Of a stretch of 64,000 nt of DNA, positions 1,233 through 55,684 are shown piece after piece (the first letter of the stretch is position 1; every line of letters starts with the position of its first letter). The notes beneath the pieces are model-generated. The model did not search any database, was not told the origin of the DNA, and worked only from the letters and a program-made list of their open reading frames with translations. A program made the position numbers and the translations under genes. The stretch covers positions 479,331-543,330 of the forward strand of contig CAJOIT010000003.1 of assembly GCA_905234755.1 (NCBI GenBank), given 5' to 3'. The stretch is from an uncultured Bacteroidales bacterium. Lineage in GTDB: Bacteria > Bacteroidota > Bacteroidia > Bacteroidales > ML635J-15.

Positions 1233-1310
1233 GGCTAACGGTCGAACAGTCTAACAGCCTTGCAGTCGAGTCAAAGGCTGTTTGCTTTTAGCCTGTCAGC
1301 CTGTTAGCCC
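1233..1310 (-). repeat. intergenic word-repeat element (module a, inverted)
   Basis: The reverse complement of 1284-1310 is GGGCTAACAGGCTGACAGGCTAAAAGC. Confidence 0.55.
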
Positions 1311-1322
1311 AAGTATATTACC

Positions 1323-5334: not shown

Positions 5335-6546
5335 ATGATAGAAAACTTGAATGAATTTATGTCAACGAATATGGCTGCTGCAAAGCGTTCTGCCATTCGT
5401 GAAATATTGAAGTTAACACAGCGTCCCGAAGTTATTTCGTTTGCTGGTGGTTTGCCTGCTCCTGCATCGTTCCCAGTAAAGGACATCAAGCAGTGCATCG
5501 ATGAAATACTTGATGAGGCTGGACCAAAAGCATTGCAGTACGGAACTACCGAGGGTGATGTTGAGCTTCGCAACGAAATCGTTAAGCATTATGCTCGTCA
5601 GGGAATGAATGTCACCATCGACAACCTTATGATTACCACTGCATCACAGCAGGCTCTCGACATTGCAGGTTGGATTTTCATCAATCCTGGTGACACAATC
5701 ATCTGCGGTTTGCCGTCATATCTTGGCGCTCTCGGTTCATTCCGCGCTTACGGTGCTGTTCCAGTAGGAATTCCATTCGATGAATATGGCATGAAACCAG
5801 ACCTTCTCGATGCTAAGTTGGCTGAAATGAAGGCTCAGGGCAAGAAACCGAAATTCATCTATTTGATTCCTGATTTCCAGAACCCGACAGGTATTACTTA
5901 CCCAGAAGCACGCCGTCAGGAAATTATAGACATTGCCGACAAGTACGATTTGTTCATCATCGAGGACTGCCCATACCGTGAACTTCGTTTCGAAGGCAAG
6001 GCACAGCGCATGATGTACGAACTTGACAAGAACCACAGAGTTATCTCTCTCGGAACATTCTCGAAGACTTTGGCTCCTGGTTTCCGTCTTGGTTGGGTTC
6101 TTGCTCATCCGGATGTAATCTACAAGTTCGTAACTGCTAAGCAGCACACCGACCTTTGTACTCCAGCTATCCTTCAGATGGCAACCGCAAGATATATGTC
6201 GAAAGGTTTGTTCGAGAAGAACTTCGGCAAGACAATCGAGATGTACCGCGAAAAACGCGACTATATGCTCAATTGCTTCGAAAAGTACATGCCAGAAGGT
6301 GTTAAGTGGACACATCCAGAAGGCGGTTTGTTCCTCTTGCTCTCGTTGCCGGAAGGTTACGATACAAACGAACTCTTCCAGGTTGCAATCAAGAACAATG
6401 TTGCTTTCGTAACCGGCGAAGTATTCTTCTGCGATGGAAGCGGCAAGAACACAATGCGTTTGAATTTCTCATATTCATCGTTGGAGCAGATAGAAGAAGG
6501 TGTAAAGCGTCTTGCATCTGCAATAAAGGAATTCATGAAGAAGTAA
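5335..6546 (+). CDS. PLP-dependent aminotransferase (class I/II)
   Basis: 403 aa with the SFSKTLAPGFRLGW PLP-lysine motif. TAnnTTTG box at 5297-5304. Confidence 0.85.
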   Translation: MIENLNEFMSTNMAAAKRSAIREILKLTQRPEVISFAGGLPAPASFPVKDIKQCIDEILDEAGPKALQYGTTEGDVELRNEIVKHYARQGMNVTIDNLMITTASQQALDIAGWIFINPGDTIICGLPSYLGALGSFRAYGAVPVGIPFDEYGMKPDLLDAKLAEMKAQGKKPKFIYLIPDFQNPTGITYPEARRQEIIDIADKYDLFIIEDCPYRELRFEGKAQRMMYELDKNHRVISLGTFSKTLAPGFRLGWVLAHPDVIYKFVTAKQHTDLCTPAILQMATARYMSKGLFEKNFGKTIEMYREKRDYMLNCFEKYMPEGVKWTHPEGGLFLLLSLPEGYDTNELFQVAIKNNVAFVTGEVFFCDGSGKNTMRLNFSYSSLEQIEEGVKRLASAIKEFMKK

Positions 6547-11378: not shown

Positions 11379-11382
11379 TATT

Positions 11383-11445
11383 GGGCTAAAAGGCGAGCTG
11401 GCAAAAAGCCTAAAAGTTTTATGGCTTAAGGTCTTCGAGCCTTAG
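11383..11445 (+). repeat. intergenic word-repeat element (module a)
   Basis: 11383-11416 matches 27732-27765 at 29 of 34 positions. Confidence 0.65.
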
Positions 11446-11514: not shown

Positions 11515-12330
11515 ATGAAACGATTTTCAATAATGCTGATTTTGCTGTTGCCCATGTGCTTTGCCATGGGGCAGAAAACATCTTTAGAGCGCTCGAAAGT
11601 ACCTATATATATTAATACAGGAATAGGGATGGGTACAGCCAATTATTACGATGCTGGCGTGTCGCCACTGCGCTATCATGGTGTAGGATTGGGCGGAGAT
11701 ATGGGTGTCACAGTGGACTGGAGCCGTTTCCAAGCATCGCTCGAAGGTCGGGTTGAAGGTTGCTTGGGCGCAGGAAATAAGGCTGATAGCAGTGCTGGTG
11801 CATACGGTGTTACCATTATGCCAAGAACTTCGTTTATGGTTCGTTTTGCCGAACCGGTTGAGGGGTCGCTTAGACTGTGGGCTGGCGCTTCAGTAGGTTC
11901 TTACATTGACATGCGAATCAACCGAAAAATGATGAATGCCGCTGTCGGACTTACGATGATGTTTAATCTATATGGTAATTTCCGCCTCGAATATGATATA
12001 CCGTCGCGGCGCAGAACAGATTTGTTTACCTTGACAGCCGACATTTCGCTGCCGCTTATGGGGATTGGCGAACGACCGGGCTATGCCTATGTTTACAACG
12101 CAACATCATCAAACGACCCGGTGGAGTATCTTTTGGACAGCTATGAATTTTTCGGTATTTTCATGTCTGGAGCAACGACCGATATTGGATTTTACTTTAA
12201 TCTTAAAAACCGCAACAAAATCGGACTTAACTATCGTTGGGACTATTGTACAACCCGTCATGCTTCGGCACATCGTTTCGACAATGCCTATCATATTGTG
12301 TCACTTAAGTTAATGTTTAATATCAATTGA
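11515..12330 (+). CDS. putative outer-membrane beta-barrel protein
   Basis: 271 aa with a signal peptide, alternating beta-strand pattern and aromatic C-terminus. TAnnTTTG at 11480-11487. Confidence 0.55.
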   Translation: MKRFSIMLILLLPMCFAMGQKTSLERSKVPIYINTGIGMGTANYYDAGVSPLRYHGVGLGGDMGVTVDWSRFQASLEGRVEGCLGAGNKADSSAGAYGVTIMPRTSFMVRFAEPVEGSLRLWAGASVGSYIDMRINRKMMNAAVGLTMMFNLYGNFRLEYDIPSRRRTDLFTLTADISLPLMGIGERPGYAYVYNATSSNDPVEYLLDSYEFFGIFMSGATTDIGFYFNLKNRNKIGLNYRWDYCTTRHASAHRFDNAYHIVSLKLMFNIN

Positions 12331-13364: not shown

Positions 13365-13490
13365 TTTTGAATCATTGAACCTTTGAATTATCAAACCTAT
13401 AAACAACATCAAACAACCAGAACGGCGTACTTCGACTTCCCTTCGACAGGCTCAGGGGGCGGCTCAGTACAAGTAGCCCTCAACGAAGTA
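13365..13490 (+). repeat. intergenic word-repeat element (module d plus duplicated CTTCGAC and GGCTCAG words)
   Basis: TTGAATCATTGAACCTTTGAATTATCAAACC...CAAACAACCAGAACGGCGTA. Confidence 0.55.
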
Positions 13491-13674
13491 TAACATAGGA
13501 ACCCTGAAACTTTTTCTTTTGAACAATTTTCCCCCAATACCTATGTTTATTATTGCTTTCGGTTGTTCATAAATATTGAAACAAATCGGTGGTCGAACGG
13601 TAAAAAAGCCGTAAGTTTGAAACTTGTTTGTTAGGATGGAGTTTTTTGTCCTGACGAGATGTAAATTGTTGAAA

Positions 13675-17159: not shown

Positions 17160-17162
17160 AAG

Positions 17163-17255
17163 GAATTTACGATTTTTTGATTGGCTACGCCGAGCTAAAG
17201 GTTTACGATTTACGATTGAATTTAGAATCATCAAATTATCGAATCTTTGAATCTT
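17163..17255 (+). repeat. intergenic word-repeat element (modules b and d)
   Basis: TTGGCTACGCCGAGCTAAAGGTTTACGATTTACG, then GAATCATCAAATTATCGAATC. Confidence 0.65.
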
Positions 17256-17271
17256 TTTAAAATAAAAGTAC

Positions 17272-17279
17272 TATCTTTG
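17272..17279 (+). promoter_or_regulatory. TAnnTTTG box (TATCTTTG)
   Basis: 26 nt upstream of the PorP/SprF ATG at 17305. Confidence 0.5.
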
Positions 17280-17304
17280 CCGTTTGTTTGCAAATAGCTG
17301 CCTT

Positions 17305-21300: not shown

Positions 21301-21629
21301 TTTACGACATCAGGGTTCAGGACAATAACCATTGCATAGATGTTGAACAGACCTACTTGGATGCATCCGTAGGCATACCGTCGTTCTTTACGCCAAACGG
21401 TGATGGTTTCAACGATACATGGGTGCTTACAGGCTTGTATATGTATCCCGAATCCAAGGTTTCTGTATATGACCGCTACGGCAAGGAACTTTTCAGCTCT
21501 AAGGGTGCAATTTGCGAGTGGGACGGAATGTATGGTGGTCGTCCGTTGCCAAGTGATTCGTATTGGTATGTTGTATACCTTGGTGAAGGTTATCCCGTCA
21601 TGAAGGGTTGCGTCACGATAAAAAGATAA
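18339..21629 (+). CDS. large surface protein: SBBP-like beta-propeller repeats + Ig-like repeats + T9SS type B C-terminal sorting domain
   Basis: About 1096 aa. The N-terminal half has repeated (A)VDxxGNIY(V/L)(T/A)G units. The middle has about 7 Cys-containing Ig-like repeats (YxWNTGE/SNG). The C-terminus is FFTPNGDGFNDTW...YDRYGKELF...WDG...YWY. Confidence 0.9.
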   Translation: MKRTFALILFLISTAMTFAQHAGDSIDCSDRIGYSWMKGFGNTASESISDVAVDASGNIYLTGSFTGSISIDGQSVTSAGNTDFYVAKLSPEGSVLWFKSGGSSAVEEANAIAVDANGNVFVAGMSNESTSFDGNSYPSLGGKDGFLLKLDTDGNFVFVRTIGCFNDDNAYDVVVDGSNNVIVTGHFNYALQVSSTSLFQTAKGANDAFLVKFDNAGAFLWTIPYASSAHDYGRRVACDNAGNIYLAGEFKGTINIAGSTLQSPNDMNVYIAKFNPSGEVQWAAQRGASGDDAVKALAVTSTGDVYLAYKQSNTNPYIAKYSASGTSQGTIAYSGSGTLDVADILCDTNGNIYITGNYSGTIEFGSTASTSSGSGCDFYIIRYDSDGVINMRIFGNQNNANYIKSIAIDYANNVVAGGGFASSITMNSDTETSNGQDDALLIKFERYMSFGYSEISSTGCNASNMSASINVEGGIAPYLYYWSNGSTSQSLSGVSAGTYTLTVVDGDHCYITTSLTLTAPQPPVVELPSIPTLCPMDTVSVAVNSDMSAYAWNTGEHTREISIHSAGTYSVTITNSNSCTASASFSVSQYPNIDVLPETDYYFCPNESLTIEASGFLSYYWSNGMSSSTFTTPLEYTFWVRAFNGICYYYDTITTHKYPQPTIELGADTYFCAGDSVRVTAPDGFVSYSWSNGAEGRSVWVSIDGVLTVEASDANSCKAVDSINVGKVESPEVDLGKDTTYCTDGKVILSSSGQYQNCSFEWNTHEQTAAIGVTSSGTYWLRVTNQYGCSSVDTVTIRVINVPTFGLPDDMDFCEDYVRLSSHNHYLSYQWNTGETSAYIDIYSSGVYSVTVTDASGCTVSDEVNATKHDIIDPFIGNDTVFCGLQSRRLYLNTTYASYEWNNGTSNPYIDIAVPGYYAVSVTNTSGCTASTSLRADFSDNYPEIINITSGKGLVIVEVQGGTPPYYYSADGVTWQSSNIFDNLPSSFYDIRVQDNNHCIDVEQTYLDASVGIPSFFTPNGDGFNDTWVLTGLYMYPESKVSVYDRYGKELFSSKGAICEWDGMYGGRPLPSDSYWYVVYLGEGYPVMKGCVTIKR

Positions 21630-21639
21630 AGAAAATATA

Positions 21640-21684
21640 ATATATGCGTAGGGGCAGGTTTCAAACTTGCCCCTACGCATATAT
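21640..21684 (+). terminator. long perfect hairpin after the type-B CTD gene
   Basis: 17-bp stem 21640-56 / 21668-84. No T-run on the plus strand; an A8 run follows. Confidence 0.5.
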
Positions 21685-21733
21685 GTCTTCAAAAAAAATC
21701 TCATTCCCATTTTGTATTATTATACCAATATGT

Positions 21734-21741
21734 TATATTTG
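21734..21741 (+). promoter_or_regulatory. TAnnTTTG box (TATATTTG)
   Basis: 46 nt upstream of the LRR gene ATG at 21787. Confidence 0.45.
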
Positions 21742-21786
21742 CAAAACATTTGTGTTTGGGGATTTGGATTTAATAAACAATAAAGA

Positions 21787-24700
21787 ATGAGGAAATTATA
21801 TAAATTAACTCTATTGCTCATTGTTATCCTGCTGGGCAACAAGGCAATGGCTTACGACTTTTCCGCTGTATGCAGTACCGGGCAGACATTGTATTACACA
21901 ATTACATCAGATATAGAGCCTTATACGGTTAGTGTGGCAACAGAAAATGAAGAGTACCCATTCTACAATACAACTCCTACTGGTGACCTTGAAATCCCGG
22001 AATCGGTTGAGTTTAATAGTATAACATATTCTGTTACAGGTCTTATCGATTATGCGCTGCAACATTGCAACGGACTGACATCCGTTACAATTCCCAATTC
22101 AGTAACGAGCATTGGTGCCTATGCTTTTTATGGTTGTAGTGGTCTGTCTGAGATAACAATTCCTAGTTCTGTAACAGAAATTGGCGATGAAGCATTTGTC
22201 AGTTGTAGCGGATTGACTACTGTCAATTTCAATGCGGAAACCAGCACAGGATCGAGCATTTTTACTGGTTGCTCGTTTACAACCTTGAATATCGGCGAAA
22301 ACGTGAAGGTTATTCCCGCTCAAGCATTTATGTATTGTGGCGGACTGACAGAGGTGATAATATCGGATTCTGTCACTACTATTGGCGATCGTGCATTTAA
22401 TGAATGTTCATCACTGGCTACTCTTACGATTGGCAAGTCGGTTGCAAGTATAGGCAATAGCGTATTTATAAACAACTCAGGATTGACCACAGTCTATTAC
22501 AATGCCACAAACTGCGCAACTGTCGCAACATATAACTGGGGCGGCTGTTCATCGTTAACAACCCTGAACATTGGCGAAAGTGTTAAGAATATTCCTGATT
22601 ATTTATTTAGAGATTGTAGTGGACTTACAGGCACTTTGGTTATACCAGATTCGGTGACGAATATCGGAGCATCTGCGTTTTACAATTGCAGTGGATATGA
22701 AACTCTAACATTAGGCAAAAGTGTGGAAACAATCGGTAATAATGCATTCTACGGCTGCAATTTCTCCACGCTCAACTACAATGCCGCCAACTGCAGCAGC
22801 ACTTCTTTTTCTGGCAACAGTAATATCACCACTATTACCATTGGCGAGGATGTGGAAACGATTTCCAATGGCGCATTTTCCGCTTGCACAGGACTGACTA
22901 CTGTCAATTTCAATGCAACAAACTGCACAACTATGGGAAGTTCCAGTAATCCTGTATTTTATAATTGTACATCATTGGCGACTATAAATATCAGCGAAGG
23001 GGTAACGAATATTCCAAGTTATGCATTTTATCAATGCAGCGCACTGACAAGAGTTAATTATTCAGGCACTATTACTCAGTGGTGCGGAATAACATTTGGT
23101 GCTCCAGGTCCACTATATGATGCCCATAACCTATATATTAACAATAGTCTAGTTACTGACTTGGTTATCCCTGATATTGTAACAGAAATAAATGATTATG
23201 CATTTCGGGGTGCGACTTGCCTGACATCGGTTACGATTCCAGAATCTATTACCAACATAGGTACTGCCGCCTTTTCTTCATGTAGCGAACTGACTACGGT
23301 AAATTTCAATGCAATTAATTGTACTACGATGGGAAGTGCTGGTGTTTCTGTATTTTCATCATGTACATCGCTGTCAACATTGAATATTGGCGATAATGTT
23401 AAAAATATTCCAGCCAATGCATTCAAGAATTGTAGCGGATTGGAAACAATAACAATAGGGAATTCAATAGAAAGCATTGGCGATTATGCATTTTATAATT
23501 GCAGCGGACTAACAGGAATAACAATTCCCGATTCTGTAACTAACATTGGCTCATACGCATTTTCTGGATGTACAGGAATAAGTGAAATAACAATTCCCAA
23601 TTCTGTAACAAGCATTGGCGATAAGACTTTTGATGGGTGTACGGGACTGAATACGGTAAACTTCAATGCCGAAAACTGCACTACTGCGGGAACTACAAAC
23701 TATTCGGCATTTTCTAATGGTACATTTACAACCTTGAATATCGGCAATAATGTTAAAAATATTCCCAATTATGCATTTTATAATTGTAGTGGACTGACAG
23801 AAATAACAATTCCCGATTCGGTAACTAACATTGGCACATACGCGTTTTCTGGTTGTTCGGGACTAACTACGGTTAATTTTAATGCGACAAACTGTACAAT
23901 CATGGGAAGTGCGAGTGATCCTGTTTTTGACAATTGCTCTTTGTTTGCTACTTTGAATATTTACGATAATGTTAAGAATATTCCAAGTTATGCATTCAAG
24001 GGGTGCACAGGTTTGACCGAAATAACAATTCCTGATTCTGTAACAAGCATTGGTGACAGGGCTTTTTATGGTTGTACTGGACTATCTATGGTTAATTTCA
24101 ATGCCCAAAACTGCACGACTATGGGTGGCTCTTATCCTGTATTCGAGGATTGCACAAACATGGCGACCTTAAATATTGGCGAAAGAGTAAAGAATATTCC
24201 TGACCATGCGTTCCGTACTTGGACAGGACTGACTGAAATAACAATTCCCGATTCGGTAACAAGCATTGGCGACAGGGCATTTTCTGGTTGTACTGGACTA
24301 TCTACCGTTAATTTCAACGCCCAAAACTGCACCACTATGGGAAGTTCAAGTAATCCTGTATTTTACAATTGCACATCATTTGCGACCTTGAATATCGGTG
24401 AAAGAGTAAAAAGTATTCCTGACAATGCTTTTTATGGTTGCACAGGACTAAACGAAATAACAATTCCTGATTCGGTAACAAGTATTGGCGAAAGAGCATT
24501 TTATGGTTGTACAGGATTGACTACGGTTAATTTCAATGCCGAAAATTGCACAAGTATGGGAACAATGGACGATGCTGCATTTAATCATGGTACATTTACA
24601 ACCTTGAATATCGGCAATAATGTTATGAATATTCCCGATTATGCATTTAGCTATTGCGAAGGACTGACTGAAACTTTAACTATCCCAAGCTCTGTTACAA

Positions 24701-26724
24701 GCATTGGCGCGAGAGCATTTTATCATTGTATAGGTCTGTCCTCATTATCAATCCCAGAATCAGTTACTAGCATTAGCGATGGAGCGTTTGCGTATTGTGA
24801 AGGGCTTATAGGAGAACTTGTTATTCCCAATTCTGTTATAACTATAGGAAGTGAAAATGACATGTATGGTGCATTTTGGCACTGCAGCAATCTCACATCG
24901 GTAACAATAGGCAGTACGGTAGAAACTATTGGCAAATATGCATTTCAGGCTTGTATCAGTTTGATTTCGATAGCTGTTCCAGATTCGGTAACAAGCATTA
25001 GAGACTGGGCTTTTCATGGTTGTACAGAATTAACTACGGTTACAATAGGTAGTTCCGTAGAAAATATTGGCTCTTCGGCATTTAGTCAGTGTGAAAACAT
25101 CACAGAAATATATATAACAGCTAATACACCACCAGTTCTTGAAGGTACTTCTGTTTTTATGCCGATAGTACGCAGTTCCGCTTCTCTTTATGTTCCTTGC
25201 AATGCATCAGATGCATATAGTTCGGCTGACGGATGGAGTGATATCACTAACATACAGGAACGCTTCCTATATGAATTGAATGTATCGAGCGAAAATGAGC
25301 AGCAGGGGACGGCAAGCATAACACAACAGCCGACTTGCTCCAACAGCGGAATAATAACCGCGACACCTGTCAATGGCTATCGCTTCCTATCGTGGAACGA
25401 TGGCAACGAGGACAATCCAAGGACGGTTATTGTCACAAGCGACAGCACTTTTATGGCAGGTTTCAGGGCAATCCATACCATTACGGCAACTGCAGGTGAA
25501 AATGGTTTAATCGCTCCGAGTGGTGAAATAACACTGGACGAAGGAGAAAACCAGTCGTTCACCATCACGCCAGCCGAAGACTACCGCATTGCAAGCGTAT
25601 TGGTTGACGATGTGGATGCAACCGACCAACTTGTTGAAGGTGTTTACACTTTTGAAAATGTTACAGCAAATCATACAATCGAAGCAACATTCGAGGAAAT
25701 ACCAAGTTTTACAATTACCGTTTCTGCAAATAACGATGAGTATGGTTCTGTTTCAGGTAGCGGAACATACGAGGAAGGTGCAGAAGTCATCATAACCGCA
25801 ACTCCAAACGAAGGCTACCAATTTGTTTCGTGGAGCGATGACAACACCGACAATCCGCGCACGATTACTGTTACAAGCGACAGCACATTTGTCGCAATCT
25901 TCGAACATTTGCTTGAGAGCTACATAATTACAGTTTCGGCAAACAACGATGAGTATGGTTCTGTTGCTGGTGGTGGCACATACGATGAAGGTGCGGAAGT
26001 CGTTATAACTGCAATTCCAAATGAAGGTTACCGCTTTGTTTCGTGGGATGACGAAAATACCGATAACCCGCGTACGATTACGGTTACAAGCGACAGCACA
26101 TTTGTTGCAATCTTCGAAGTGGAACCGCTTCAGCAATATACAATTACAGTCTTGTCAAATGATGAAGAATATGGTATGGTTTCTGGCGGAGGAACTTACG
26201 ATGAAGGTTCAACAGTAATAATTACTGCAATTCCTAACATTGGCTACTGCTTCTTGACATGGAGCGACGGAAATACGGATAATCCGCGCGAGATTGTAGT
26301 TACAGCCGACCGCACATATACGGCCTACTTCACAGCATCTACGCATGTTGAAATAGATACGACAGTAACGAAATACCTTAGCATATATGAGCGTACATTT
26401 TATGTCGCAGGACAATATTCGTTTGTAGTTCCTTCTGCAGAGGGTTGCGATACGATTGTCGACCTCAACCTTCGCATCCTCGACGAGCCTGAAACATACG
26501 ACATTAGCCCTAATCCTGCGAAGAGCCTAATCAGCATTTCGTCAGAGGATTACATATCGTTTGTTGAATTTTATTCCACAGCAGGGCGACTTGTAATGCG
26601 TAATGAAATCAATGCGTATAGTGCAGAGATAAATGTAGAAGCACTTATGCCTGGTGTTTATTTTGTAAGATTATATGGCGAGGACGAAGGTCTGCCATCA
26701 GTTCAAAGATTTGTAAAGGAGTAA
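21787..26724 (+). CDS. BspA-type leucine-rich repeat surface protein with InlB-B-like repeats and T9SS type A C-terminal domain
   Basis: 1645 aa. About 40 LRR units (IPxSVTSIGxxAFxxCxGLT), four GY(R/Q/C)F(L/V)SW...NPRT repeats, and a terminal 75 aa with the Por-secretion-tail pattern (ISPNPA...GVYFVRL). Confidence 0.9.
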   Translation: MRKLYKLTLLLIVILLGNKAMAYDFSAVCSTGQTLYYTITSDIEPYTVSVATENEEYPFYNTTPTGDLEIPESVEFNSITYSVTGLIDYALQHCNGLTSVTIPNSVTSIGAYAFYGCSGLSEITIPSSVTEIGDEAFVSCSGLTTVNFNAETSTGSSIFTGCSFTTLNIGENVKVIPAQAFMYCGGLTEVIISDSVTTIGDRAFNECSSLATLTIGKSVASIGNSVFINNSGLTTVYYNATNCATVATYNWGGCSSLTTLNIGESVKNIPDYLFRDCSGLTGTLVIPDSVTNIGASAFYNCSGYETLTLGKSVETIGNNAFYGCNFSTLNYNAANCSSTSFSGNSNITTITIGEDVETISNGAFSACTGLTTVNFNATNCTTMGSSSNPVFYNCTSLATINISEGVTNIPSYAFYQCSALTRVNYSGTITQWCGITFGAPGPLYDAHNLYINNSLVTDLVIPDIVTEINDYAFRGATCLTSVTIPESITNIGTAAFSSCSELTTVNFNAINCTTMGSAGVSVFSSCTSLSTLNIGDNVKNIPANAFKNCSGLETITIGNSIESIGDYAFYNCSGLTGITIPDSVTNIGSYAFSGCTGISEITIPNSVTSIGDKTFDGCTGLNTVNFNAENCTTAGTTNYSAFSNGTFTTLNIGNNVKNIPNYAFYNCSGLTEITIPDSVTNIGTYAFSGCSGLTTVNFNATNCTIMGSASDPVFDNCSLFATLNIYDNVKNIPSYAFKGCTGLTEITIPDSVTSIGDRAFYGCTGLSMVNFNAQNCTTMGGSYPVFEDCTNMATLNIGERVKNIPDHAFRTWTGLTEITIPDSVTSIGDRAFSGCTGLSTVNFNAQNCTTMGSSSNPVFYNCTSFATLNIGERVKSIPDNAFYGCTGLNEITIPDSVTSIGERAFYGCTGLTTVNFNAENCTSMGTMDDAAFNHGTFTTLNIGNNVMNIPDYAFSYCEGLTETLTIPSSVTSIGARAFYHCIGLSSLSIPESVTSISDGAFAYCEGLIGELVIPNSVITIGSENDMYGAFWHCSNLTSVTIGSTVETIGKYAFQACISLISIAVPDSVTSIRDWAFHGCTELTTVTIGSSVENIGSSAFSQCENITEIYITANTPPVLEGTSVFMPIVRSSASLYVPCNASDAYSSADGWSDITNIQERFLYELNVSSENEQQGTASITQQPTCSNSGIITATPVNGYRFLSWNDGNEDNPRTVIVTSDSTFMAGFRAIHTITATAGENGLIAPSGEITLDEGENQSFTITPAEDYRIASVLVDDVDATDQLVEGVYTFENVTANHTIEATFEEIPSFTITVSANNDEYGSVSGSGTYEEGAEVIITATPNEGYQFVSWSDDNTDNPRTITVTSDSTFVAIFEHLLESYIITVSANNDEYGSVAGGGTYDEGAEVVITAIPNEGYRFVSWDDENTDNPRTITVTSDSTFVAIFEVEPLQQYTITVLSNDEEYGMVSGGGTYDEGSTVIITAIPNIGYCFLTWSDGNTDNPREIVVTADRTYTAYFTASTHVEIDTTVTKYLSIYERTFYVAGQYSFVVPSAEGCDTIVDLNLRILDEPETYDISPNPAKSLISISSEDYISFVEFYSTAGRLVMRNEINAYSAEINVEALMPGVYFVRLYGEDEGLPSVQRFVKE
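21990..25140 (+). repeat. intragenic LRR repeat array with long near-identical DNA copies
   Basis: For example, a 26-nt exact match at 23800-23825 and 24235-24260, and ~75-nt near-identical stretches starting near 22903 and 24304. Confidence 0.85.
25270..26335 (+). repeat. intragenic array of ~75-aa InlB-B-like repeats
   Basis: Four copies of ...NDEYGSV.G.GTY.EG..V.ITA.PN.GY.F.SW.D.NTDNPR.I.VT.D.T...F. One unrelated Ig-like unit lies after the first copy. Confidence 0.8.
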
Positions 26725-26729
26725 ATTAT

Positions 26730-27683
26730 ATGAGAACGAAGAATTTCAGTGGAATTTTATTTGTAGGAATAGTCCTCTTGTTTTTGGCGGCATCGTGCCA
26801 TAAGGAAGCTATAGAGTTAAGCCCTCTCGCCAAGTTGGACTTGGTTGTTGTGCGTGGCGACAAGACAATGAACAAGAGTCTCCTGACCGAGTTCGAGGCT
26901 CGAGTTCTTGTTGAATACGAGTATGATACGATTGAGAGAAAATGTGTATTTGTATATAGTGCCGACGACGACATGTATATGTACGATGTTACTCGTAGCG
27001 ATGTCGTTGAGGTTCGCAGGGAAAACCCGTTTAGTGTTATGGTAGAAGCTGTTATCGACGACGATGTGCTTCGTGGTGAGTCCGAGACCTTGACCATTGG
27101 CGATGACCCATTGACGATTAGCATAGTCCTGCATTCTGAAAACGGAGGTCATACCTTTATCGATTTAGGATTGCCGAGCGGTACGCTTTGGGCTGAGTGC
27201 AATTTGGGAGCAAGGAAGCCAGAGGAATACGGAACTTACTACGCATGGGGCGAAATAGCAACAAAGGATTTGTTCAGCTGGAATACATATAGCATTGGCA
27301 ATGAGTTGGATAGCGTGACGCGTCTTGATGCGTCGCATGATGCGGCAACAGCCAATTGGGGCGACAACTGGCGTATGCCGTCGCGTGAGGACTTCGATGA
27401 GTTGTACTCCTCGTGTACACGGACATGGACAACACGCAACAATGTCAACGGCTATCAGCTTACAGGACTAAACGGCAACAGCATTTTCCTGCCAGCAGCT
27501 GGTGGTCGTGGCGATGGCAACATTTACGAAGGCGGTTCTTGTGGATTCTATTGGCTAAGTTCCGTTTATACTGACGATACACAGTTTGCTTGGGGATTCC
27601 TCATTGATGCCGATTCCTTCTACGAGACAAGCTATTACCGCATGTATGGTCAGACGATTAGACCGGTATGTAATGCGCAATAA
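26730..27683 (+). CDS. lipoprotein with C-terminal FISUMP/DUF1566-like (lectin-fold) domain
   Basis: Lipobox LAASC. C-terminal LGLPSGTLWAECNLGA...YYAWGE...WRMPS...IFLPAAG...YWLSS...IRPV. Paralogous to 30355..31485. Confidence 0.75.
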   Translation: MRTKNFSGILFVGIVLLFLAASCHKEAIELSPLAKLDLVVVRGDKTMNKSLLTEFEARVLVEYEYDTIERKCVFVYSADDDMYMYDVTRSDVVEVRRENPFSVMVEAVIDDDVLRGESETLTIGDDPLTISIVLHSENGGHTFIDLGLPSGTLWAECNLGARKPEEYGTYYAWGEIATKDLFSWNTYSIGNELDSVTRLDASHDAATANWGDNWRMPSREDFDELYSSCTRTWTTRNNVNGYQLTGLNGNSIFLPAAGGRGDGNIYEGGSCGFYWLSSVYTDDTQFAWGFLIDADSFYETSYYRMYGQTIRPVCNAQ

Positions 27684-28030
27684 ATAATGAACAATGGATA
27701 ATTGACAATGAACAATGTATAATGGATAAATGGGCTAAAAGGCGAACAGGCAGAAATGCTAAAAGCCAACCATTAGCTCGCGCAAGCAATTTCAATTCGT
27801 TCCAAACATCCATCAAACAATTTGCTAATGGAACAATTTGTGGTGTCGTTGCACGCAACGACCCTACAAATTAATCTTCAAATTATCAAATCATCGAATC
27901 ATCAAACAATCAGAAACTTAGAAACGGGCGAAGCCTATAGAAACTGCGAAGCGTAGAAACGGCGTAGCAATATAAACCAGAAACATTTCCAAACAATAAA
28001 TTCCTAAATCGTACATCGTAAATCCAAAAT
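27684..28030 (+). repeat. longest exemplar of a dispersed, modular, G-poor intergenic word-repeat element
   Basis: Contains all of modules a-d described in the findings, plus an internal near-tandem duplication of AATGAACAATG(G/T)ATAAT. Confidence 0.7.
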
Positions 28031-28037
28031 TTTATTG

Positions 28038-28045
28038 TACATTTG
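28038..28045 (+). promoter_or_regulatory. TAnnTTTG box (TACATTTG)
   Basis: 27 nt upstream of the SOD gene start. Confidence 0.45.
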
Positions 28046-28071
28046 TCGTATAAACAATAATTATCATACTT

Positions 28072-28674
28072 ATGAAAGAAATTATGCCAGTAAACGGAAT
28101 CTTTGAAATGCCTGCATTGCCATTCGAAGCAGCGGCATTGGGTGGTGTTATAAGTGAAAATACTTTGAGTTTCCATCATGGAAAGCACCTTAAAGCTTAT
28201 GTCGATAACATGAACAAATTGTTGCCAGGGAGCGGACTTGAAAACATGTCGCTTGTTGAGGTTGTAAAGCGTGCCGAAGGAGGAATGTTCAACAATGCTG
28301 GTCAGGTGCTGAACCACACAATGTATTTTGAGCAGTTTGCAGCAAAACGCGAAAACAACCAGCCTACAGGACAACTTTTGTCGTTGATTGAAAGGGATTT
28401 CGGTTCATTCGATGCTTTCAAGACTGAATTTGTGCAGAAGGGTGTTGGTCTGTTTGGTTCTGGCTGGGTTTGGCTATCGCTGAATGCAGAGGGAAAACTT
28501 GTCATTACGCAGGAACCGAATGCAGAAAATCCTGTTCGCAAGGGTCTGAAGCCGTTGCTGACATTTGATGTATGGGAGCATGCATACTACCTTGATTATC
28601 AGAACCGCCGTGCCGATCATCTCGTAGCTCTGTGGAGCATAATCGACTGGAAGGTTATTGAAGGCAGACTGTAA
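28072..28674 (+). CDS. Fe/Mn superoxide dismutase
   Basis: HHGKHLKAYVDN and DVWEHAYYLDYQNRR motifs. The true start may be the Met at 28084. Confidence 0.95.
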   Translation: MKEIMPVNGIFEMPALPFEAAALGGVISENTLSFHHGKHLKAYVDNMNKLLPGSGLENMSLVEVVKRAEGGMFNNAGQVLNHTMYFEQFAAKRENNQPTGQLLSLIERDFGSFDAFKTEFVQKGVGLFGSGWVWLSLNAEGKLVITQEPNAENPVRKGLKPLLTFDVWEHAYYLDYQNRRADHLVALWSIIDWKVIEGRL

Positions 28675-31485: not shown

Positions 31486-31562
31486 AAGTGTTTGTAATGT
31501 TTTGATTATCAAGGGTAATTGAAAATGTGTTATAAAATGCAAGGTTTTAAATATAAAATATA

Positions 31563-31570
31563 TATATTTG
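31563..31570 (+). promoter_or_regulatory. TAnnTTTG box (TATATTTG)
   Basis: About 100 nt upstream of the GldM_C-like gene, which implies a long 5' UTR. Confidence 0.35.
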
Positions 31571-31673
31571 CAGTGTCGTTGTCTTTGGCTTTTGTTTAAA
31601 GGACTTCGCAGAACTGGAGATGCGGCATAAAAATGTTAAAAAATAGAAGTCCATCAATTAAATTTTTAATAAT

Positions 31674-32306
31674 ATGAGAAAAAATCTAATTTTAGTAGTG
31701 TCGTTGCTGTGCTTTTCTTTTATGATGGCTAATGCACAGGGTGTTCAAATCAAAAACAGTGCAGTTAATGTGTTGTATCAGGGCGTAAAGAATCCTGTTT
31801 CGATAGTAAACTGTGCAAATGATGTCGCACCGACAATATCAAACGGTGCAAAAATATATTCTGGACAAGTTCCTGGATTCGACGGCCAATACGTAGTTGA
31901 AATAACCGATCCGAATGTTAAGTCGGTGACAATAAGTGTAGGAGAGACCTCTTGCAAGTTTAATGTGTTGAATCTTCCTATGCCTACAATCACAATTGGA
32001 GGATATAGGGTCGGAGATGAGATTCCTAAGTCAGTTTTTACAAAATCGACAAAAATTGATGCTTCAATAGGTGATGTAAACTTTCCGTTCAAGGATGTTG
32101 AATATACTGTGGCTCAATTCACATACATGAAAGAAGAAGATGGGATAACATCAACACAATTTGTAACTGGAAATGAAATCCCCGCTGATATTCTAGCCGA
32201 TATAAAGAAGAAATCATCTGGTTCTACAATAATGTTCATCGGAATTAAGGTTTCTACACCAGCTGGTGTAAGAAATGCACCTGCTTTTTCGGCAAAATTG
32301 AAATAA
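31674..32306 (+). CDS. secreted stand-alone GldM C-terminal-domain-like protein
   Basis: 210 aa with a cleavable signal peptide. NVLYQGVKNPVSI, FNVLNLPMPTITIGG and DVNFPF...YTVAQFTY follow the GldM/PorM C-terminal pattern. Confidence 0.65.
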   Translation: MRKNLILVVSLLCFSFMMANAQGVQIKNSAVNVLYQGVKNPVSIVNCANDVAPTISNGAKIYSGQVPGFDGQYVVEITDPNVKSVTISVGETSCKFNVLNLPMPTITIGGYRVGDEIPKSVFTKSTKIDASIGDVNFPFKDVEYTVAQFTYMKEEDGITSTQFVTGNEIPADILADIKKKSSGSTIMFIGIKVSTPAGVRNAPAFSAKLK

Positions 32307-32337
32307 AGGTATATGTAAATAGCAATATGTTGATAAA

Positions 32338-32370
32338 CGGCAGTCGGCGAAAGTCGGCTGTCGTTTTTTT
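32338..32370 (+). terminator. intrinsic terminator (copy 1 of a duplicated terminator)
   Basis: CGGCAGTCGGC-GAAA-GTCGGCTGTCG followed by T7. Confidence 0.75.
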
Positions 32371-32415
32371 CAGTGAATCGCTTCCAAAAAATATTTGTAT
32401 GTTTCATATTTTCAC

Positions 32416-32423
32416 TATTTTTG
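32416..32423 (+). promoter_or_regulatory. TAnnTTTG box (TATTTTTG) of the TA cassette
   Basis: 14-29 nt upstream of the two candidate antitoxin ATGs. Confidence 0.45.
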
Positions 32424-32451
32424 CAACATCAAACAAATGAGAATCGGATTT

Positions 32452-32661
32452 ATGTGTACGGTAACAATCGAATATAGTAAAAACAGAAAGGAAATAGATG
32501 CACTTTTGTCCGTTATGCGGAAACTTGGAGCCATTGTGACCGTGTCGAAAGATGAAGAACCGCAATATAATCCAGAAATCGTGGCAAAAGTAGAACGAGG
32601 ACGCGAAGCATACAAGCGTGGCGAATGTGTTAAAATTGCTATTGAAGATTTATGGAAATAG
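32452..32661 (+). CDS. DUF2683-like antitoxin (partner of YoeB/Txe-type toxin)
   Basis: 69 aa. The ...PQYNPEIVAKVERGREAYKRGE...DLWK pattern is typical of the Bacteroidota antitoxin family. It overlaps the toxin start by 10 nt. An alternative ATG lies at 32437. Confidence 0.65.
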   Translation: MCTVTIEYSKNRKEIDALLSVMRKLGAIVTVSKDEEPQYNPEIVAKVERGREAYKRGECVKIAIEDLWK

Positions 32662-32925
32662 TCTATACACCAGACGCGTTAGAAGATTTGGAATACTGGA
32701 AGCAGTCTGGCAACAAACAAGCATTGAAAAAAAATAACACAATTGTTGACCGCTATTCTTGTCGATTATAAAAATGGAATAGGTCAACCAGAGCAGTTGA
32801 AGAAAAATATGACTGGCTGCTGGTCACGGCATATTGACAAGAAAAATCGTCTTATTTATGAGGTGTACGAAGATGACCAGATTATTAATGTCGTATCTCT
32901 TCGCGGTCATTATTTAGATAAATAA
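32652..32925 (+). pseudogene. yoeB: YoeB/Txe family toxin, frameshifted in an A8 homopolymer
   Basis: Frame A (32652-32771) gives MEIVYTPDALEDLEYWKQSGNKQALKK then a stop. Frame B (32743-32925) gives LLTAILVDYKNGIGQPEQLK...WSRHIDKKNRLIYEV...GHY. Removing one A from the run at 32727-32734 fuses them into a canonical ~90-aa YoeB. Confidence 0.8.
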
Positions 32926-32956
32926 TAATCAGATAAAACATTGAATTTACGATTTA

Positions 32957-32989
32957 CGGCATTCGGCAAAGGTCGGCTGTCGTTTTTTT
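32957..32989 (+). terminator. intrinsic terminator (copy 2, 31/34 identical to copy 1)
   Basis: CGGCATTCGGC-AAAG-GTCGGCTGTCG followed by T7. Confidence 0.75.
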
Positions 32990-33012
32990 GTTAATAAATA
33001 TCTCATGTTAGT

Positions 33013-33020
33013 TATATTTG
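33013..33020 (+). promoter_or_regulatory. TAnnTTTG box (TATATTTG)
   Basis: 47 nt upstream of the helicase ATG at 33067. Confidence 0.45.
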
Positions 33021-33066
33021 GCTCGACTGATATGTTTACTTTTGCCATTTGTAAATTGAGAATAAA

Positions 33067-34386: not shown

Positions 34387-34391
34387 CATTG

Positions 34392-34413
34392 TATACGCGT
34401 TGCGTATATTTTT
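34392..34413 (+). terminator. intrinsic terminator after the helicase gene
   Basis: TATACGC-GTT-GCGTATA followed by T5. Confidence 0.65.
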
Positions 34414-34560
34414 AGCCAAGAAGAAATAGTGTACGCAGTGCGTACATAATTCTGATTGTCCTTTCGGATTTGTAACCTTTAGCTCGCTGCCTTTAGTAGT
34501 AATTCTAAAGAATTGAATATGAAGATTTTAAATCCGAATAATAATCCATTTCAGTATCCC

Positions 34561-34624
34561 TAAAACATCGTTATAATTTGCGGTGAACGCACAAAAATGC
34601 CTGTTCACCGCAAAATAAAAGCAC
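34561..34624 (+). repeat. 64-bp direct repeat, copy 1 (contains a GCGGTGAAC/GTTCACCGC hairpin)
   Basis: 62 of 64 positions identical to 34779-34842. Confidence 0.85.
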
Positions 34625-34653
34625 GATTATGACTTCGTTTCAAAACTAAATGT

Positions 34654-34661
34654 TATCTTTG
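34654..34661 (+). promoter_or_regulatory. orphan TAnnTTTG box (TATCTTTG) between the two 64-bp repeats
   Basis: Exact match with no plausible CDS downstream before the hairpin at 34798-34833. Confidence 0.25.
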
Positions 34662-34778
34662 TTTCAATTTAAAATTTATATTGAAAATATGGAAAGTTGC
34701 AGATAATGAGCCATTTAGAGAAACGATAACTCTGTATAAAAAGGCGCAATGCAACTTATTAAGCGTAAAATTGAACAA

Positions 34779-34842
34779 TAAAACATCGTTATAATCTGCG
34801 GTGAACGCATAAAAATGCCTGTTCACCGCAAAATAAAAGCAC
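34779..34842 (+). repeat. 64-bp direct repeat, copy 2
   Basis: 62 of 64 positions identical to 34561-34624. Confidence 0.85.
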
Positions 34843-35009
34843 ATAGTTCTTTCGGATTTGCAATCTTTAACTCGTTGCTTATGGCAACAATCCGAATAAA
34901 CATCTCATCGCATTACGAATCCAGCTACCGCACAATCCAAATTTCTTTCACAAAATTATTTCCACCCCAAATTTTGCATTTTTTGTTTAGATTTATTATC
35001 TTCGCAAGA

Positions 35010-35017
35010 TAAATTTG
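35010..35017 (+). promoter_or_regulatory. TAnnTTTG box (TAAATTTG)
   Basis: 18 nt upstream of the Bro-N gene ATG at 35035. Confidence 0.45.
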
Positions 35018-35034
35018 ACAAAAATAGCAGGCTG

Positions 35035-38969: not shown

Positions 38970-38975
38970 GATTTT

Positions 38976-40456: not shown

Positions 40457-41212
40457 CTATTTTTTCTTTTCAAACCACTCGTTTATAATTCTCTTGCCAT
40501 CGGTTTGCAATGTTGCAGCAAATTCTTTTACTTCAATCTGCAGGCACTCGCTTAATGGTCGTGACATTGTGGCTGTGATTTCGTGTTTGGCGGCGCGTAA
40601 TGCTTCGCGTGGCTTTGATGCAAGCAGTTGTGCAAATTCTTCTGACTTGGTGTACAGTTCGTTGCGTGAGAAAACATCTTGTACGATTCCGTGATTGTGG
40701 GCGTAGTCTACTGGGATTTGCTTGCAGGAATACACAAAGTATGCAATGTCGGCAGGGGAGATGTACTTCGACAAAAAGGATATTCCGCCAGCACCAGGGA
40801 TTATTCCCATATCAACTTCGGGGAATTTCATGCGGGTTTCGGGTGTGCAGAAACGGATGTCGCAGCGTAGGGCAAGTTCCAGTCCGCCACCATATACAAT
40901 GCCATCAAGGGCTGCAATTACTGGAATGTCAAGGTTTAGTAATCCATCGTAAATGTAATGTGCGTTGGTTGCCATCAGTGTAGCTTTCTCGTAGTCGGCT
41001 CCAGCAATTTCGTGAAGGTTTCCGCCTGCTGAGAATACTTTTTCGGAGCCACGGATAATTAGAACTCTGCATTCCTTGTCGTTGCGGACAGATTCAACAG
41101 CCTCGTGAAATTCCTTAAGGAAAAGCTGGCTCATGGCATTCATCGTCGGCTCGTTGTCGAACTTAATGGTGGTGATGTTGCCAGTGTGTGATATTGATAT
41201 GGTTTTGTACAT
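40457..41212 (-). CDS. enoyl-CoA hydratase/isomerase (crotonase) family protein
   Basis: 251 aa from MYKTISISH, with FSAGGNL and GGGLELAL oxyanion-hole motifs. The upstream extension to 41320 runs through a repeat block and is rejected. Confidence 0.8.
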   Translation of the reverse strand: MYKTISISHTGNITTIKFDNEPTMNAMSQLFLKEFHEAVESVRNDKECRVLIIRGSEKVFSAGGNLHEIAGADYEKATLMATNAHYIYDGLLNLDIPVIAALDGIVYGGGLELALRCDIRFCTPETRMKFPEVDMGIIPGAGGISFLSKYISPADIAYFVYSCKQIPVDYAHNHGIVQDVFSRNELYTKSEEFAQLLASKPREALRAAKHEITATMSRPLSECLQIEVKEFAATLQTDGKRIINEWFEKKK

Positions 41213-41214
41213 GG

Positions 41215-41400
41215 TTATGTTTCTGGTTTCTAAGTTTCTGGGTTTTAGGTTTGAAATTGTTTGAAATTGTTTATTGTTGTTTGATGATTTGATGATTCTT
41301 TTGGGCATAGTGAAAAACATTCGTGTTATTGGCCGCGCCGAGCTAAGGGTTCGTGGTTAACCTCCAGTTCGAGCTTGCGAGAACGTCTTTGCTTCTTGTC
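41215..41400 (-). repeat. intergenic word-repeat element (modules c and d in minus sense, module b inverted)
   Basis: 41226-41240 is the exact reverse complement of 27911-27925 (CAGAAACTTAGAAAC). 41329-41361 matches 17181-17214. Confidence 0.7.
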
Positions 41401-41408
41401 AGCCATTT

Positions 41409-54496: not shown

Positions 54497-54527
54497 AATG
54501 GTAAATTATATTATTCCCAAAATTGTA

Positions 54528-54586
54528 AAAATAGGAACAATATGATTAAAAATTAACATTGATAACAATAAAATAGGAACAATATG
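54528..54586 (+). repeat. 17-bp exact direct repeat pair AAAATAGGAACAATATG
   Basis: Copies at 54528-54544 and 54570-54586. The second copy supplies the start codon of the DUF262-HNH gene. Confidence 0.8.
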
Positions 54587-55675: not shown

Positions 55676-55684
55676 CTATGTTTC

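Follow-up and report, generated by a model that had tools for sequence, protein, structure and literature searches.

Mosaic extragenic repeats following stop codons in a rumen Bacteroidales genus, a probable counterpart of REP, BIME and REPIN systems

The stretch of 64,000 nucleotides analysed here (hereafter the window) comes from an uncultured Bacteroidales bacterium and has 43% G+C, densely packed genes and type IX secretion cargo genes (PorP/SprF, CHU_C and Por_Secre_tail). It contains TAnnTTTG sequences, which we take to be -7 promoter boxes of the Bacteroidetes type, and no Shine-Dalgarno sites were found in it. Its most repetitive spacer (45% by re-use of 6-mers) is that at 27684-28030, between an Lcl_C-like gene (26730-27683) and a superoxide dismutase (SOD) gene. 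This spacer is a cassette of short tandem words and hairpins, here assigned to modules a to f and a REP-like (repetitive extragenic palindromic) hairpin (Table 1). Module e begins inside the last codons of the upstream gene, has a period of 7/14 in Tandem Repeats Finder (TRF) and is unstructured (predicted folding energy, dG, -1.0). Imperfect hairpins are built from modules a (words of the GGCTAAAAG type) and b (near-complementary CTGTYAGCC / TTAGCTC), one for each arm; at 27732-27782 (dG -17.0, z -2.7) the outer stem pairs GGGCTAA with TTAGCTC, which makes b the 3' partner of a. The hairpin that follows carries GTGG, a GTAG-like tag, on its 5' side and CTAC on its 3' side, and the surrounding 27800-27870 folds with dG -19.6 and z -4.4. 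Module d consists of G-free 8-mers such as ATCATCAAA and TTTGAATC, module c of NAGAAAC words often alternating with mini-hairpins of the GCGAAGC type (GGGCGAAGCC, GGGCTTTAGCCC, GGCGATAGCC), and module f of ATCGTAA words. The d/c junction (27866-27925) is predicted to be free of structure (dG 0.0), and structured and unstructured parts alternate along cassettes in general.

A protein-coding reading of this spacer was rejected: its 50-aa open reading frame (ORF), called in the identical metagenome contig L001, is interrupted by an 8-nt indel in the sister species L227. Similarly rejected was the idea that e-words supply stop codons in all three frames, as one frame stays open for 50 codons. Cassettes do attract spurious small ORFs, with ORFs of 50 and 32 aa called inside this spacer in L001.

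The original prediction, made from the letters alone, had proposed a dispersed modular repeat family that lies after stop codons and is explained by no gene, and this is borne out. The words it named were recovered by exact or near matching. The 15-mer CAGAAACTTAGAAAC is exact at 27911 (+) and 41226 (-), with one mismatch at 48909 (-) and two in a further copy at 55687 (-), giving five matches at up to two mismatches against 0.24 expected. GGGCTAAAAGGCGA is exact at both 11383 and 27732, and GCCGAGCTAARGGTT at 17189 and 41337; 27768 (-) and 34474 (-) hold degenerate copies of the latter. The d word GAATCATCAAA is common to 27867-27910, 17160-17283 and 41213-41408. An ORF called at 40457-41320 truly starts at 41212, so 41213-41408 is spacer. 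The predicted match of 27938-27968 to the reverse complement of 55687-55716 holds for the first 22 of 31 columns (one mismatch, one gap), but the last eight are mostly mismatched. Spacer words are rare in coding sequence (CDS): in 5.9 kb of spacers vs 58 kb of CDS, GCTAAAAG was counted 5 vs 0 times, TTAGAAAC 6 vs 1 and CGAGCTAA 4 vs 0. Local duplication, also predicted, is evident from 6-mers re-used within 4-24 nt, which cover 19.2% of spacer bases and 7.8% of CDS bases (1022 spacer bases observed, 501+-75 in shuffles). Different spacers share 72 exact 11-mers (22+-6 in shuffles) and 32 exact 12-mers (7+-4). The proposed excess of C over G needs narrowing to the d/c sub-blocks, which are G-poor. 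Positions 27861-27925 contain three G as claimed, but 15 rather than 18 C (A31 C15 G3 T16), and the whole of 27684-28030 is only mildly biased (C70 G56), the a/b part being G-rich hairpin arms. What the prediction missed were the polar order of the modules, the nature of a/b as hairpin arms, the GTAG/CTAC palindromes and, in relatives, genes resembling REP-associated tyrosine transposases (RAYTs).

From the stop codon onwards, cassettes run in the order e, a/b, REP-like palindrome, d, c and f, followed by a TAnnTTTG box or a start codon. Relative positions in the spacer are 0.04-0.11 for e, 0.12-0.35 for a, about 0.5 for d, 0.57-0.93 for c and 0.53-0.91 for f. The arrangement recurs at 27684 in the window, at L218 2638, L202 1730 and L230 4192, and elsewhere (L-numbered names denote the contigs of relatives and metagenomes compared with the window). 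The clearest complete example, L218 2638-2927, is at a non-orthologous site in another species and matches the start of the 27684 spacer at 77.5% identity over 80 nt. The e-a junction is unlikely to have been inherited along with the Lcl_C-like gene before it, given proteins only 45% identical vs DNA 77-86% identical. Words of module e stand directly after stop codons also at L202 1730, L202 9768 and L218 2638, and f words just upstream of TAnnTTTG boxes at L210 10437-10572, L213 11442-11513 and L215 3817-3938. The a/b hairpin at 27732 has a 35-nt relative at 11381-11415 (86% identical) and two-armed long versions at 1233-1312 and L218 2700-2860. Giant versions of c are found at L202 1840-1916 and at L230 4192-4441, a 250-nt spacer made nearly entirely of c-words (19 NNNGAAAC units) around a single palindrome; the commonest c units are TTAGAAAC (13), ATAGAAAC (10) and CCAGAAAC (8).

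Orientation follows transcription rather than replication, as cassettes by minus-strand genes (41213, 48892) are reversed. The predicted alignment of modules with the upstream gene is seen for c, d and e arrays in nine sense-only spacers vs one antisense-only, at 55676 next to an inserted low-GC island, and d arrays are in sense orientation in all six spacers having one. Close-relative DNA (~170 kb) was obtained via the enoyl-CoA hydratase, an S41 peptidase and the gene upstream of 27684-28030, and the window's own genome is represented by ~64 kb. Across 169 kb of the clade, 74 kb of near outgroups and 461 kb of other Bacteroidota, pairs of c-words number 30, 0 and 1, AGAAACTTAGAAA 11, 0 and 0, e 10, 0 and 0, and strand matches of palindrome g (described below) 14, 0 and 0. 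Within the DNA compared, the words and this palindrome are confined to one genus-level clade. A scan of genome collections with SOD returned mostly distant taxa (<=66% identity), useful chiefly as outgroup DNA; the closest Fe-SOD match, at 91% identity with broken synteny, is in a yak-rumen 'Bacteroidales bacterium' metagenome-assembled genome, and the remaining matches are at <=66%. L001, which is identical to the window around 27684-28030, is a rumen-type metagenome contig from ENA. These two matches place the source of the window in the rumen.

Spacers change by whole words between strains, and the slippage-type gain and loss proposed earlier is directly visible. L202 and L220 differ by an indel of 14 nt (2 x 7) in e and by a c array that has been rebuilt, L210 and L212 (2.6% different at third positions) by a 21-nt b duplication, and the window and L227 by two 8-nt indels in the 27684-28030 spacer. 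Orthologous spacers retain word types and not counts, measuring 124 vs 198 nt between PAS and PorP genes and 63 vs 187 nt between murF/alr and a RapZ-like gene. Upstream of the enoyl-CoA hydratase gene the spacer is 1 nt long in L221 and 33 nt in L204, where it is G-free; its lengths elsewhere are 196 nt (window), 233 nt (L202) and 254 nt (L220). The hydratases of L221 and L204 are 70% and 80% identical to that of the window. Operon spacers of 1-33 nt in outgroups are inflated by cassettes to ~200-290 nt.

Spacer divergence was gauged against third-codon-position differences in flanking genes. The 27684-28030 spacer is identical at 386/388 positions to a 97% strain and 91.8% identical to L227, with 94-96% identity over 27600-27899 and 86% plus a word-unit indel in the c part, its least conserved stretch. 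Third positions differ by 39% in the upstream gene, 28% in SOD and 27% in a DEAD helicase gene, and the spacer that follows is only 57-71% identical. At the a/b hairpin, L227 differs by an insertion of 8 nt and by a C->T substitution that still allows a G-U pair. The comparison of L202 with L220 gives the same pattern, such that in two comparisons cassettes are better conserved than neighbouring synonymous sites. Between the window and L202 or L210 (35% third-position difference) the stop-proximal cassette halves are unalignable; this loss at slightly greater divergence makes change look punctuated, by replacement, rather than gradual. Sharp switches from ~100% to 83-90% identity, in 26100-28300 of the window vs L224 and in 21400-21790 vs L227, point to frequent homologous recombination, with some breakpoints near spacers. 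Given this evident mosaic, some of the conservation described above may reflect recent exchange.

Palindrome g, TGTASAGACGCAA-N4-TTGCGTCTSTACA or in fuller form TGTA[CG]AGACGCAA-N4-TTGCGTCT[CG]TACA, is a short palindrome repeated at extragenic sites. REPs are imperfect palindromes of 20-40 nt found at many such sites, with a conserved GTAG tetranucleotide on one side of the stem. Palindrome g has spacer copies at 47430 and 48932 in the window, 1780 and 5560 in L202 and 4333 in L230, four intragenic copies, and none in 535 kb of outgroup Bacteroidota. Its spacer copies bear the tag variants GTAC/CTAC or TCAA, and often TCAA or CTAC plus c-words come next. The 27837-27866 hairpin (GTGG...CTAC) is a putative member of the same family by resemblance only. 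Degenerate GTGG tags are known for some REP families, and GTAG-tagged REPs are mostly found downstream of genes and thought to be RNA elements (PMC3733652).

RAYT-like genes are present in L213 (8563-9117), L211 (830-1390), L214 (5600-6172), L212 (7107-7646) and L227 (19419-19955). They encode proteins of 178-190 aa with HUH motifs (PNHIHAIV, PNHVHLII, PDHIHGIV; NH[IV]H), AWQ[SRP]R[YF][FY]D and EYIENNVAEW, in which V replaces P. They match NF047646 ('REP-associated tyrosine transposase') with E-values of 5e-16 and 1.8e-12, and one passes Pfam Y1_Tnp (25.9 bits vs a cutoff of 23). In four of the five genes (not that of L212), the coding sequence from the HUH to the Tyr motif includes, in frame, a perfect GTAG/CTAC palindrome of 24-30 nt. 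This is palindrome g, with loop variants matching spacer copies of the clade and with the GTAG tag in the form TGTAGAGACGC...GCGTCTCTACA in L211, L213 and L214 and CTGTAGCGACGC...GCCGCTACA in L227. Subclass 2.4 of TnpA-REP, reported to be abundant in Cyanobacteria and Bacteroidetes, is characterized by NH[IFV]H, WQ, YIxNNP and ~194 aa, and is singled out for REPs inserted within the tnpA-REP gene (Quentin et al. 2018; PMC6006769). The HUH, WQ and YIxNNP-type motifs, the size and the internal REP of the genes described here agree with that subclass, and judging by these features both the palindromes and the RAYT-like genes fall within the described kind. The presence of RAYT-like transposases in close relatives places the family beside REP, bacterial interspersed mosaic element (BIME) and REPIN systems. 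In L212-L214 the RAYT-like gene is flanked by a hairpin of another type, CCCTTCGAC..GCTCAGGG, which is also present in the 13365 block of the window; among the relatives, no RAYT-like gene was seen flanked by its cognate REP, a different hairpin taking that place.

The family exists, is polar and ordered, belongs to one genus-level clade, grows and shrinks by word units and inflates spacers. It is probable (at roughly 0.6) that the blocks form a lineage-specific family of mosaic repeats outside genes, corresponding in Bacteroidales to REP/BIME/REPIN elements, with arrays made by slippage and a role at the RNA level. Like the REPs and BIMEs of Enterobacteria, they lie outside genes, usually after a gene or between two of the same direction, are plausibly transcribed, and form a mosaic of short imperfect palindromes and other motifs that varies by locus and strain, with a probable tie to a RAYT-type transposase through the GTAG tag (PMC3733652). 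They combine REPs with other motifs in recurrent arrangement, as BIMEs do, though these motifs are unrelated to those of Escherichia coli. However, most of their length is made up of 7-8 nt tandem word arrays rather than palindromes, the module order is fixed and polar to transcription, and part of each cassette is structure-free and G-free. The spacer-dispersed palindrome g, the RAYT-like genes of the clade and the REP copy within the gene resemble REPIN-RAYT systems and subclass 2.4, and inverted a-word arms give REPIN-like long hairpins; described REPINs have nothing equivalent to word arrays c, d, e and f. In Streptococcus pneumoniae, BOX elements consist of 45-59 nt modules in an A-Bn-C arrangement and have no known transposase. 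They are likewise modular and intergenic, with one module of variable tandem copy number, and are transcribed and foldable as the cassettes would be, but here units are 7-17 nt long and of at least six module types. In agreement with the original prediction, which recognised no described repeat class in the blocks, full-text literature searching found no description of ordered, strand-polar 7-8-nt arrays built on palindromes, of their array size or of their confinement to a rumen Bacteroidales genus.

Under this reading, palindromes would spread through recombination or a RAYT-type mechanism acting on single-strand DNA, and word arrays would be made and resized in place by replication slippage, perhaps deriving in part from the 3' tail of the palindrome (CTAC-AGAAAC). 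Cassettes would be transcribed as 3' untranslated regions (UTRs) or intercistronic RNA, in which hairpins may act as 3'-end barriers or pause sites. The G-depleted, unstructured d/c run would form naked RNA, offering a loading site for Rho where the spacer has no intrinsic terminator and a ribosome start region where a gene follows directly. The most likely working model is thus a hairpin barrier with a naked-RNA zone that may be used by Rho or by ribosomes according to context. Several points weigh against the proposed placement. The window contains no RAYT gene in its 64 kb, the RAYT-like matches are under the curated NCBIfam cutoff, and the link of word arrays to palindromes is one of co-occurrence across the clade and within spacers rather than of demonstrated mechanism. 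No transposition footprints of word arrays (target-site duplications, clean filled and empty sites) were found, and the loss of alignment in stop-proximal halves also counts on this side. The high conservation of the 27684-28030 spacer could be a recombination tract. Relatives were reached, and in part chosen, through genes flanking cassettes, genes are crude, simple ORF calls, and the statistics are based on ~10 independent spacers, a small sample.

The original suggestion that the d/c arrays are Rho utilization (rut) sites, and cassettes Rho-dependent terminators acting after the stop codon and before the next promoter, is possible though doubtful. Generic scans for terminators and sigma-70 promoters gave no excess over shuffles. 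Under a stricter hairpin-plus-T-run rule applied to spacers only, such terminators occur in 0/9 cassette spacers vs 12/31 other post-stop spacers (Fisher p = 0.037), and this lack of canonical terminators fits a role at transcript ends. Rut sites comprise about 60-80 nt of unstructured RNA in which C exceeds G. The d/c arrays resemble them in being unstructured, G-depleted, sense-oriented, placed after the stop codon and furnished with UC/CC dimers, and 60-nt windows with C-G of at least 10 are present in 9/19 cassettes in sense vs 4/19 in antisense and make up 1.35% of CDS windows. BIMEs of E. coli have been reported to cause Rho-dependent attenuation. However, the arrays are A-dominated tandem words with only 23-30% C; c-words offer one C per 7-8 nt, mostly in AC rather than YC context, and the co-directional spacers of the window overall are not richer in C than G (C763 vs G810). 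Array length is free to vary between strains. Roughly one array in two lies inside an operon, directly against a start codon and with no intervening promoter (41213, 48892, L202, L218, L230), where termination would be polar. That position is what would be expected of expanded translation-initiation leaders, serving as standby sites of the downstream gene for ribosomes that work without Shine-Dalgarno pairing, an explanation we hold to be somewhat less probable again. Start sites in Bacteroidia are A-rich and weakly structured (PMC6847099). Composition at -20 to -6 in the clade reaches A 42-51% and G 11-14%, short operon spacers of outgroup L204 are G-free with d-like words, and c arrays abut the ATG at 41213, 48892, L202 1730 and L230; beside the hydratase start codon, CCAGAAACTTAGAAAC is the only piece of that spacer common to the window, L202 and L220. 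Yet in 27684-28030, 13365, 17160, L210 5877 and L202 3369 the arrays are upstream of a TAnnTTTG box and would therefore not be part of the mRNA of the downstream gene. Arrays of 100-250 nt also far exceed what a start site needs, and one cassette (55676) is inverted.

Purely selfish or neutral DNA is the main alternative to a mosaic repeat family with a role in RNA. In its neutral form, slippage would inflate any spacer word as cryptically simple DNA, with neither dispersal nor function, and sharing would stem from composition or constraint. This agrees with imperfect tandem repeats of short period whose unit number changes from one close strain to another, with spacers longer than those of outgroups, with a c region more variable than any other part, and with stop-proximal halves that no longer align at 35% third-position divergence. 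It is nevertheless unlikely, as the same 13-18-mers and the same module order are present at many unrelated, non-orthologous sites of several species under strong rules of orientation, strand and position. Furthermore, the 27684-28030 and L202/L220 spacers are more conserved than flanking synonymous sites, and most c units retain the GAAAC core as their prefixes vary. Least likely of those considered is that the e-a-b-hairpin part (27684-27870) encodes a locus-specific small regulatory RNA or one derived from the 3' UTR, the repeats being incidental. Its conservation in L227 above that of the flanking CDS and its significant predicted structure would suit such an RNA; against this, the locus has no Rfam match even at E <= 1 and no upstream promoter box, one L227 change in the hairpin costs a base pair that no second change restores, the sequences are too few for covariation, the same modules are present at many other loci, and the 50-aa ORF of L001 is broken in L227. 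At the other extreme, cassettes might be selected, polar modules of gene ends, in which REP-derived hairpins and word-built structure-free RNA jointly replace intrinsic terminators; this is about as improbable as the neutral account. Were it true, cassettes would be Rho-dependent terminators or insulators, or intercistronic couplers tuned by word copy number, amounting to a slippage-tunable, RAYT-seeded system of termination or coupling not known from any bacterium.

REP and REPIN-RAYT systems have been studied almost only in Proteobacteria, and the mosaic of this Bacteroidales genus is richer. If the arrays work at the RNA level, they would provide a natural handle, tunable by copy number, on termination, polarity or translation start, in a phylum without Shine-Dalgarno pairing and with poorly mapped terminators. 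In practical terms, cassettes break metagenome assemblies (L219, L206-L209) and draw spurious small-ORF calls. Assembly breaks are in or within ~200 nt of cassettes at the starts of L219, L206-L209 and L222, with L219 starting inside an a-word array and the four Logan contigs L206-L209 starting ~220 nt upstream of the hydratase gene, which is consistent with cassettes being multi-copy repeats.

Table 1. Modules of the spacer at 27684-28041 and further cassettes and palindrome copies in the window
Feature	Position	Strand	Composition and context
Module e	27684-27731	+	7-nt words YAATKRA: ATAATGA ACAATGG ATAATTG ACAATGA ACAATGT ATAATGG
Modules a+b	27732-27782	+	Imperfect hairpin GGGCTAAAAGGCGAACAGGCAGAAATGCTAAAAGCCAACCATTAGCTCG
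REP-like hairpin	27837-27866	+	GTGG-T-GTCGTTGC-AC-GCAACGAC-C-CTAC, 8-bp stem
Module d	27867-27910	+	G-free 8-nt words AAATTAATC TTCAAATT ATCAAATC ATCGAATC ATCAAAC; TRF period 8
Module c	27911-27985	+	NAGAAAC words alternating with GC mini-hairpins GGGCGAAGCC, TGCGAAGCG, GGCGTAGC; ends with ACCAGAAACAT; TRF period 16
Module f and promoter	28003-28041	+	TAAATCGTACATCGTAAATCC, then -7 box TACATTTG (28034-28041) of SOD gene 28072-28674
a-word cassette, inverted	1233-1312	+	Between sigma-54 activator gene and rpe; long imperfect REPIN-like hairpin
a-word cassette	11383-11445	+	Between UDG-family gene and promoter of gene 11515-12330
d-words, then structured element with CCCTTCGACAGGCTCAGGG (13439-13457)	13365-13500	+	
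f-words (antisense), b (GCCGAGCTAAAGGTT), d-words (sense)	17163-17255	+	Upstream of TATCTTTG box of PorP/SprF gene
b-like word AACCTTTAGCTCGCTGCC within a different local repeat	34455-34500	+	
Intercistronic cassette, b then d then c	41213-41408	-	Ends 13 nt from ATG of enoyl-CoA hydratase gene 40457-41212
Second palindrome g copy GACGCAATGCATTGCGCC	47430-47447		Identical to copy within L227 RAYT-like ORF
Palindrome g GACGCAAGGCCTTGCGTC (48932-48949), TCAACGAT and c-words TAGAAACTTAGAAAC	48892-48954	-	21 nt upstream of ATG of gene 47452-48891
Inverted cassette	55676-55865	-	a-words then c-words on - strand; neighbours on + strand

The remaining cassettes differ in composition and in their fate in relatives. 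The 1233-1312 hairpin has a predicted dG of -34.7 (z -5.4) and no T-run terminator. The 11383 cassette is absent from the shorter spacers preceding the orthologous 271-aa gene in L212 and L213, where a RAYT-like gene is upstream. In the 13365 block, the CCCTTCGACAGGCTCAGGG element and the hairpin beside the RAYT-like gene of L212, L213 and L214 are related; compared with L210, the stop-proximal half cannot be aligned and the promoter-proximal 108 nt are 90% identical. The L210 spacer orthologous to 17163 (5877-6074) is 198 nt long, with many more CTTTGAAC/TTTGAATC words, and the L202 spacer orthologous to 48892 also holds palindrome g, together with eight c-words. No promoter box was found between the 41213-41408 cassette and the hydratase ATG. 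A piece near-identical to that at 34455-34500 lies within the loop of a terminator-like hairpin after SOD in L227. The 648-nt spacer around it (34387-35034), before a BRO-N gene, contains two copies of a ~65-nt unit AAACATCGTTATAATYTGCGGTGAACGCAYAAAAATGCCTGTTCACCGCAAAATAAAAGCAC and two of TTTCGGATTTG.AA.CTTTA.CTCG, and L224 has an inserted ATPase gene in this region. The only inverted cassette of the window, at 55676, abuts a low-GC restriction-modification/GmrSD island (~51970-55675, GC 0.35), probably a horizontally acquired defence island, with an EcoRI-like adenine methyltransferase (53408-54496) and a GmrSD_N+HNH endonuclease (54584-55675).

A miniature inverted-repeat transposable element (MITE) reading of the cassettes was rejected, as their ends have neither terminal inverted repeats nor target-site duplications and their boundaries are diffuse between species. 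One MITE-like site was observed in L227 (16468-16693): an insertion of 220 nt, structured and bearing terminal inverted repeats GTCATTCCGYAA...TTRCGGAATGAC, separates two genes whose spacing in the window is 6 nt (38970-38975), a clean filled/empty pair; the word cassettes are a different kind of element. L202 (5440-5510), L210 (2155-2220), L211 and L212 contain a palindromic element of ~65 nt, GTTAAATGGGCGTCG..CTGTAAAGACGTGCCATGGCGCGTCTCTACAGAAACGCCGCAGGCAT, which is nearly identical at different loci of two species and absent from the window. AGAAA was rejected as an alternative Shine-Dalgarno-like site: it is biased 48:5 for sense over antisense upstream of starts, but has no sharp positional peak.

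Scans of the window found no tRNA or tmRNA and, with Rfam 15 covariance models, no match at gathering score and one unrelated match (E = 0.43) at E <= 1, away from 27684-28030. A 14-mer scan of viral contigs gave matches at chance level only, from which it was learned that collection scans need at least 21 specified bases, and 3.5 kb of extra sequence beyond the window, obtained through exact-protein look-ups, held no further cassette.

Several neighbouring features were also observed. A stretch of ~100 nt 5' of a GldM_4th-like gene (31674-32306), TTTGCAGTGTCGTTGTCTTTGGCTTTTGTTTAAAGGACTTCGCAGRACTGGAGATGCGGCATAAAA, is conserved across species (window 31560-31673, L021 1360-1462, L210 11300-11442), directly follows SOD in L021 and L210, has no Rfam match and is a candidate riboswitch or structured leader. 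Two intrinsic terminators, almost identical to each other (CGGCAGTCGGCGAAAGTCGGCTGTCGTTTTTTT), are located at 32335-32366 and 32955-32990. The 405-nt 'spacer' at 32662-33066 resembles a disrupted YoeB/ParE-type toxin gene (region 32395-33066), and L224 has an intact pair of 75 and 91 aa at a comparable place. The LRR_5/Por_Secre_tail gene contains in-frame tandem repeats at 23475-24673 (periods 69/219/435) and 25713-26118 (213 nt), the number of which is highly variable, given that the protein is 1645 aa long in the window and 3002 aa in its L227 orthologue.

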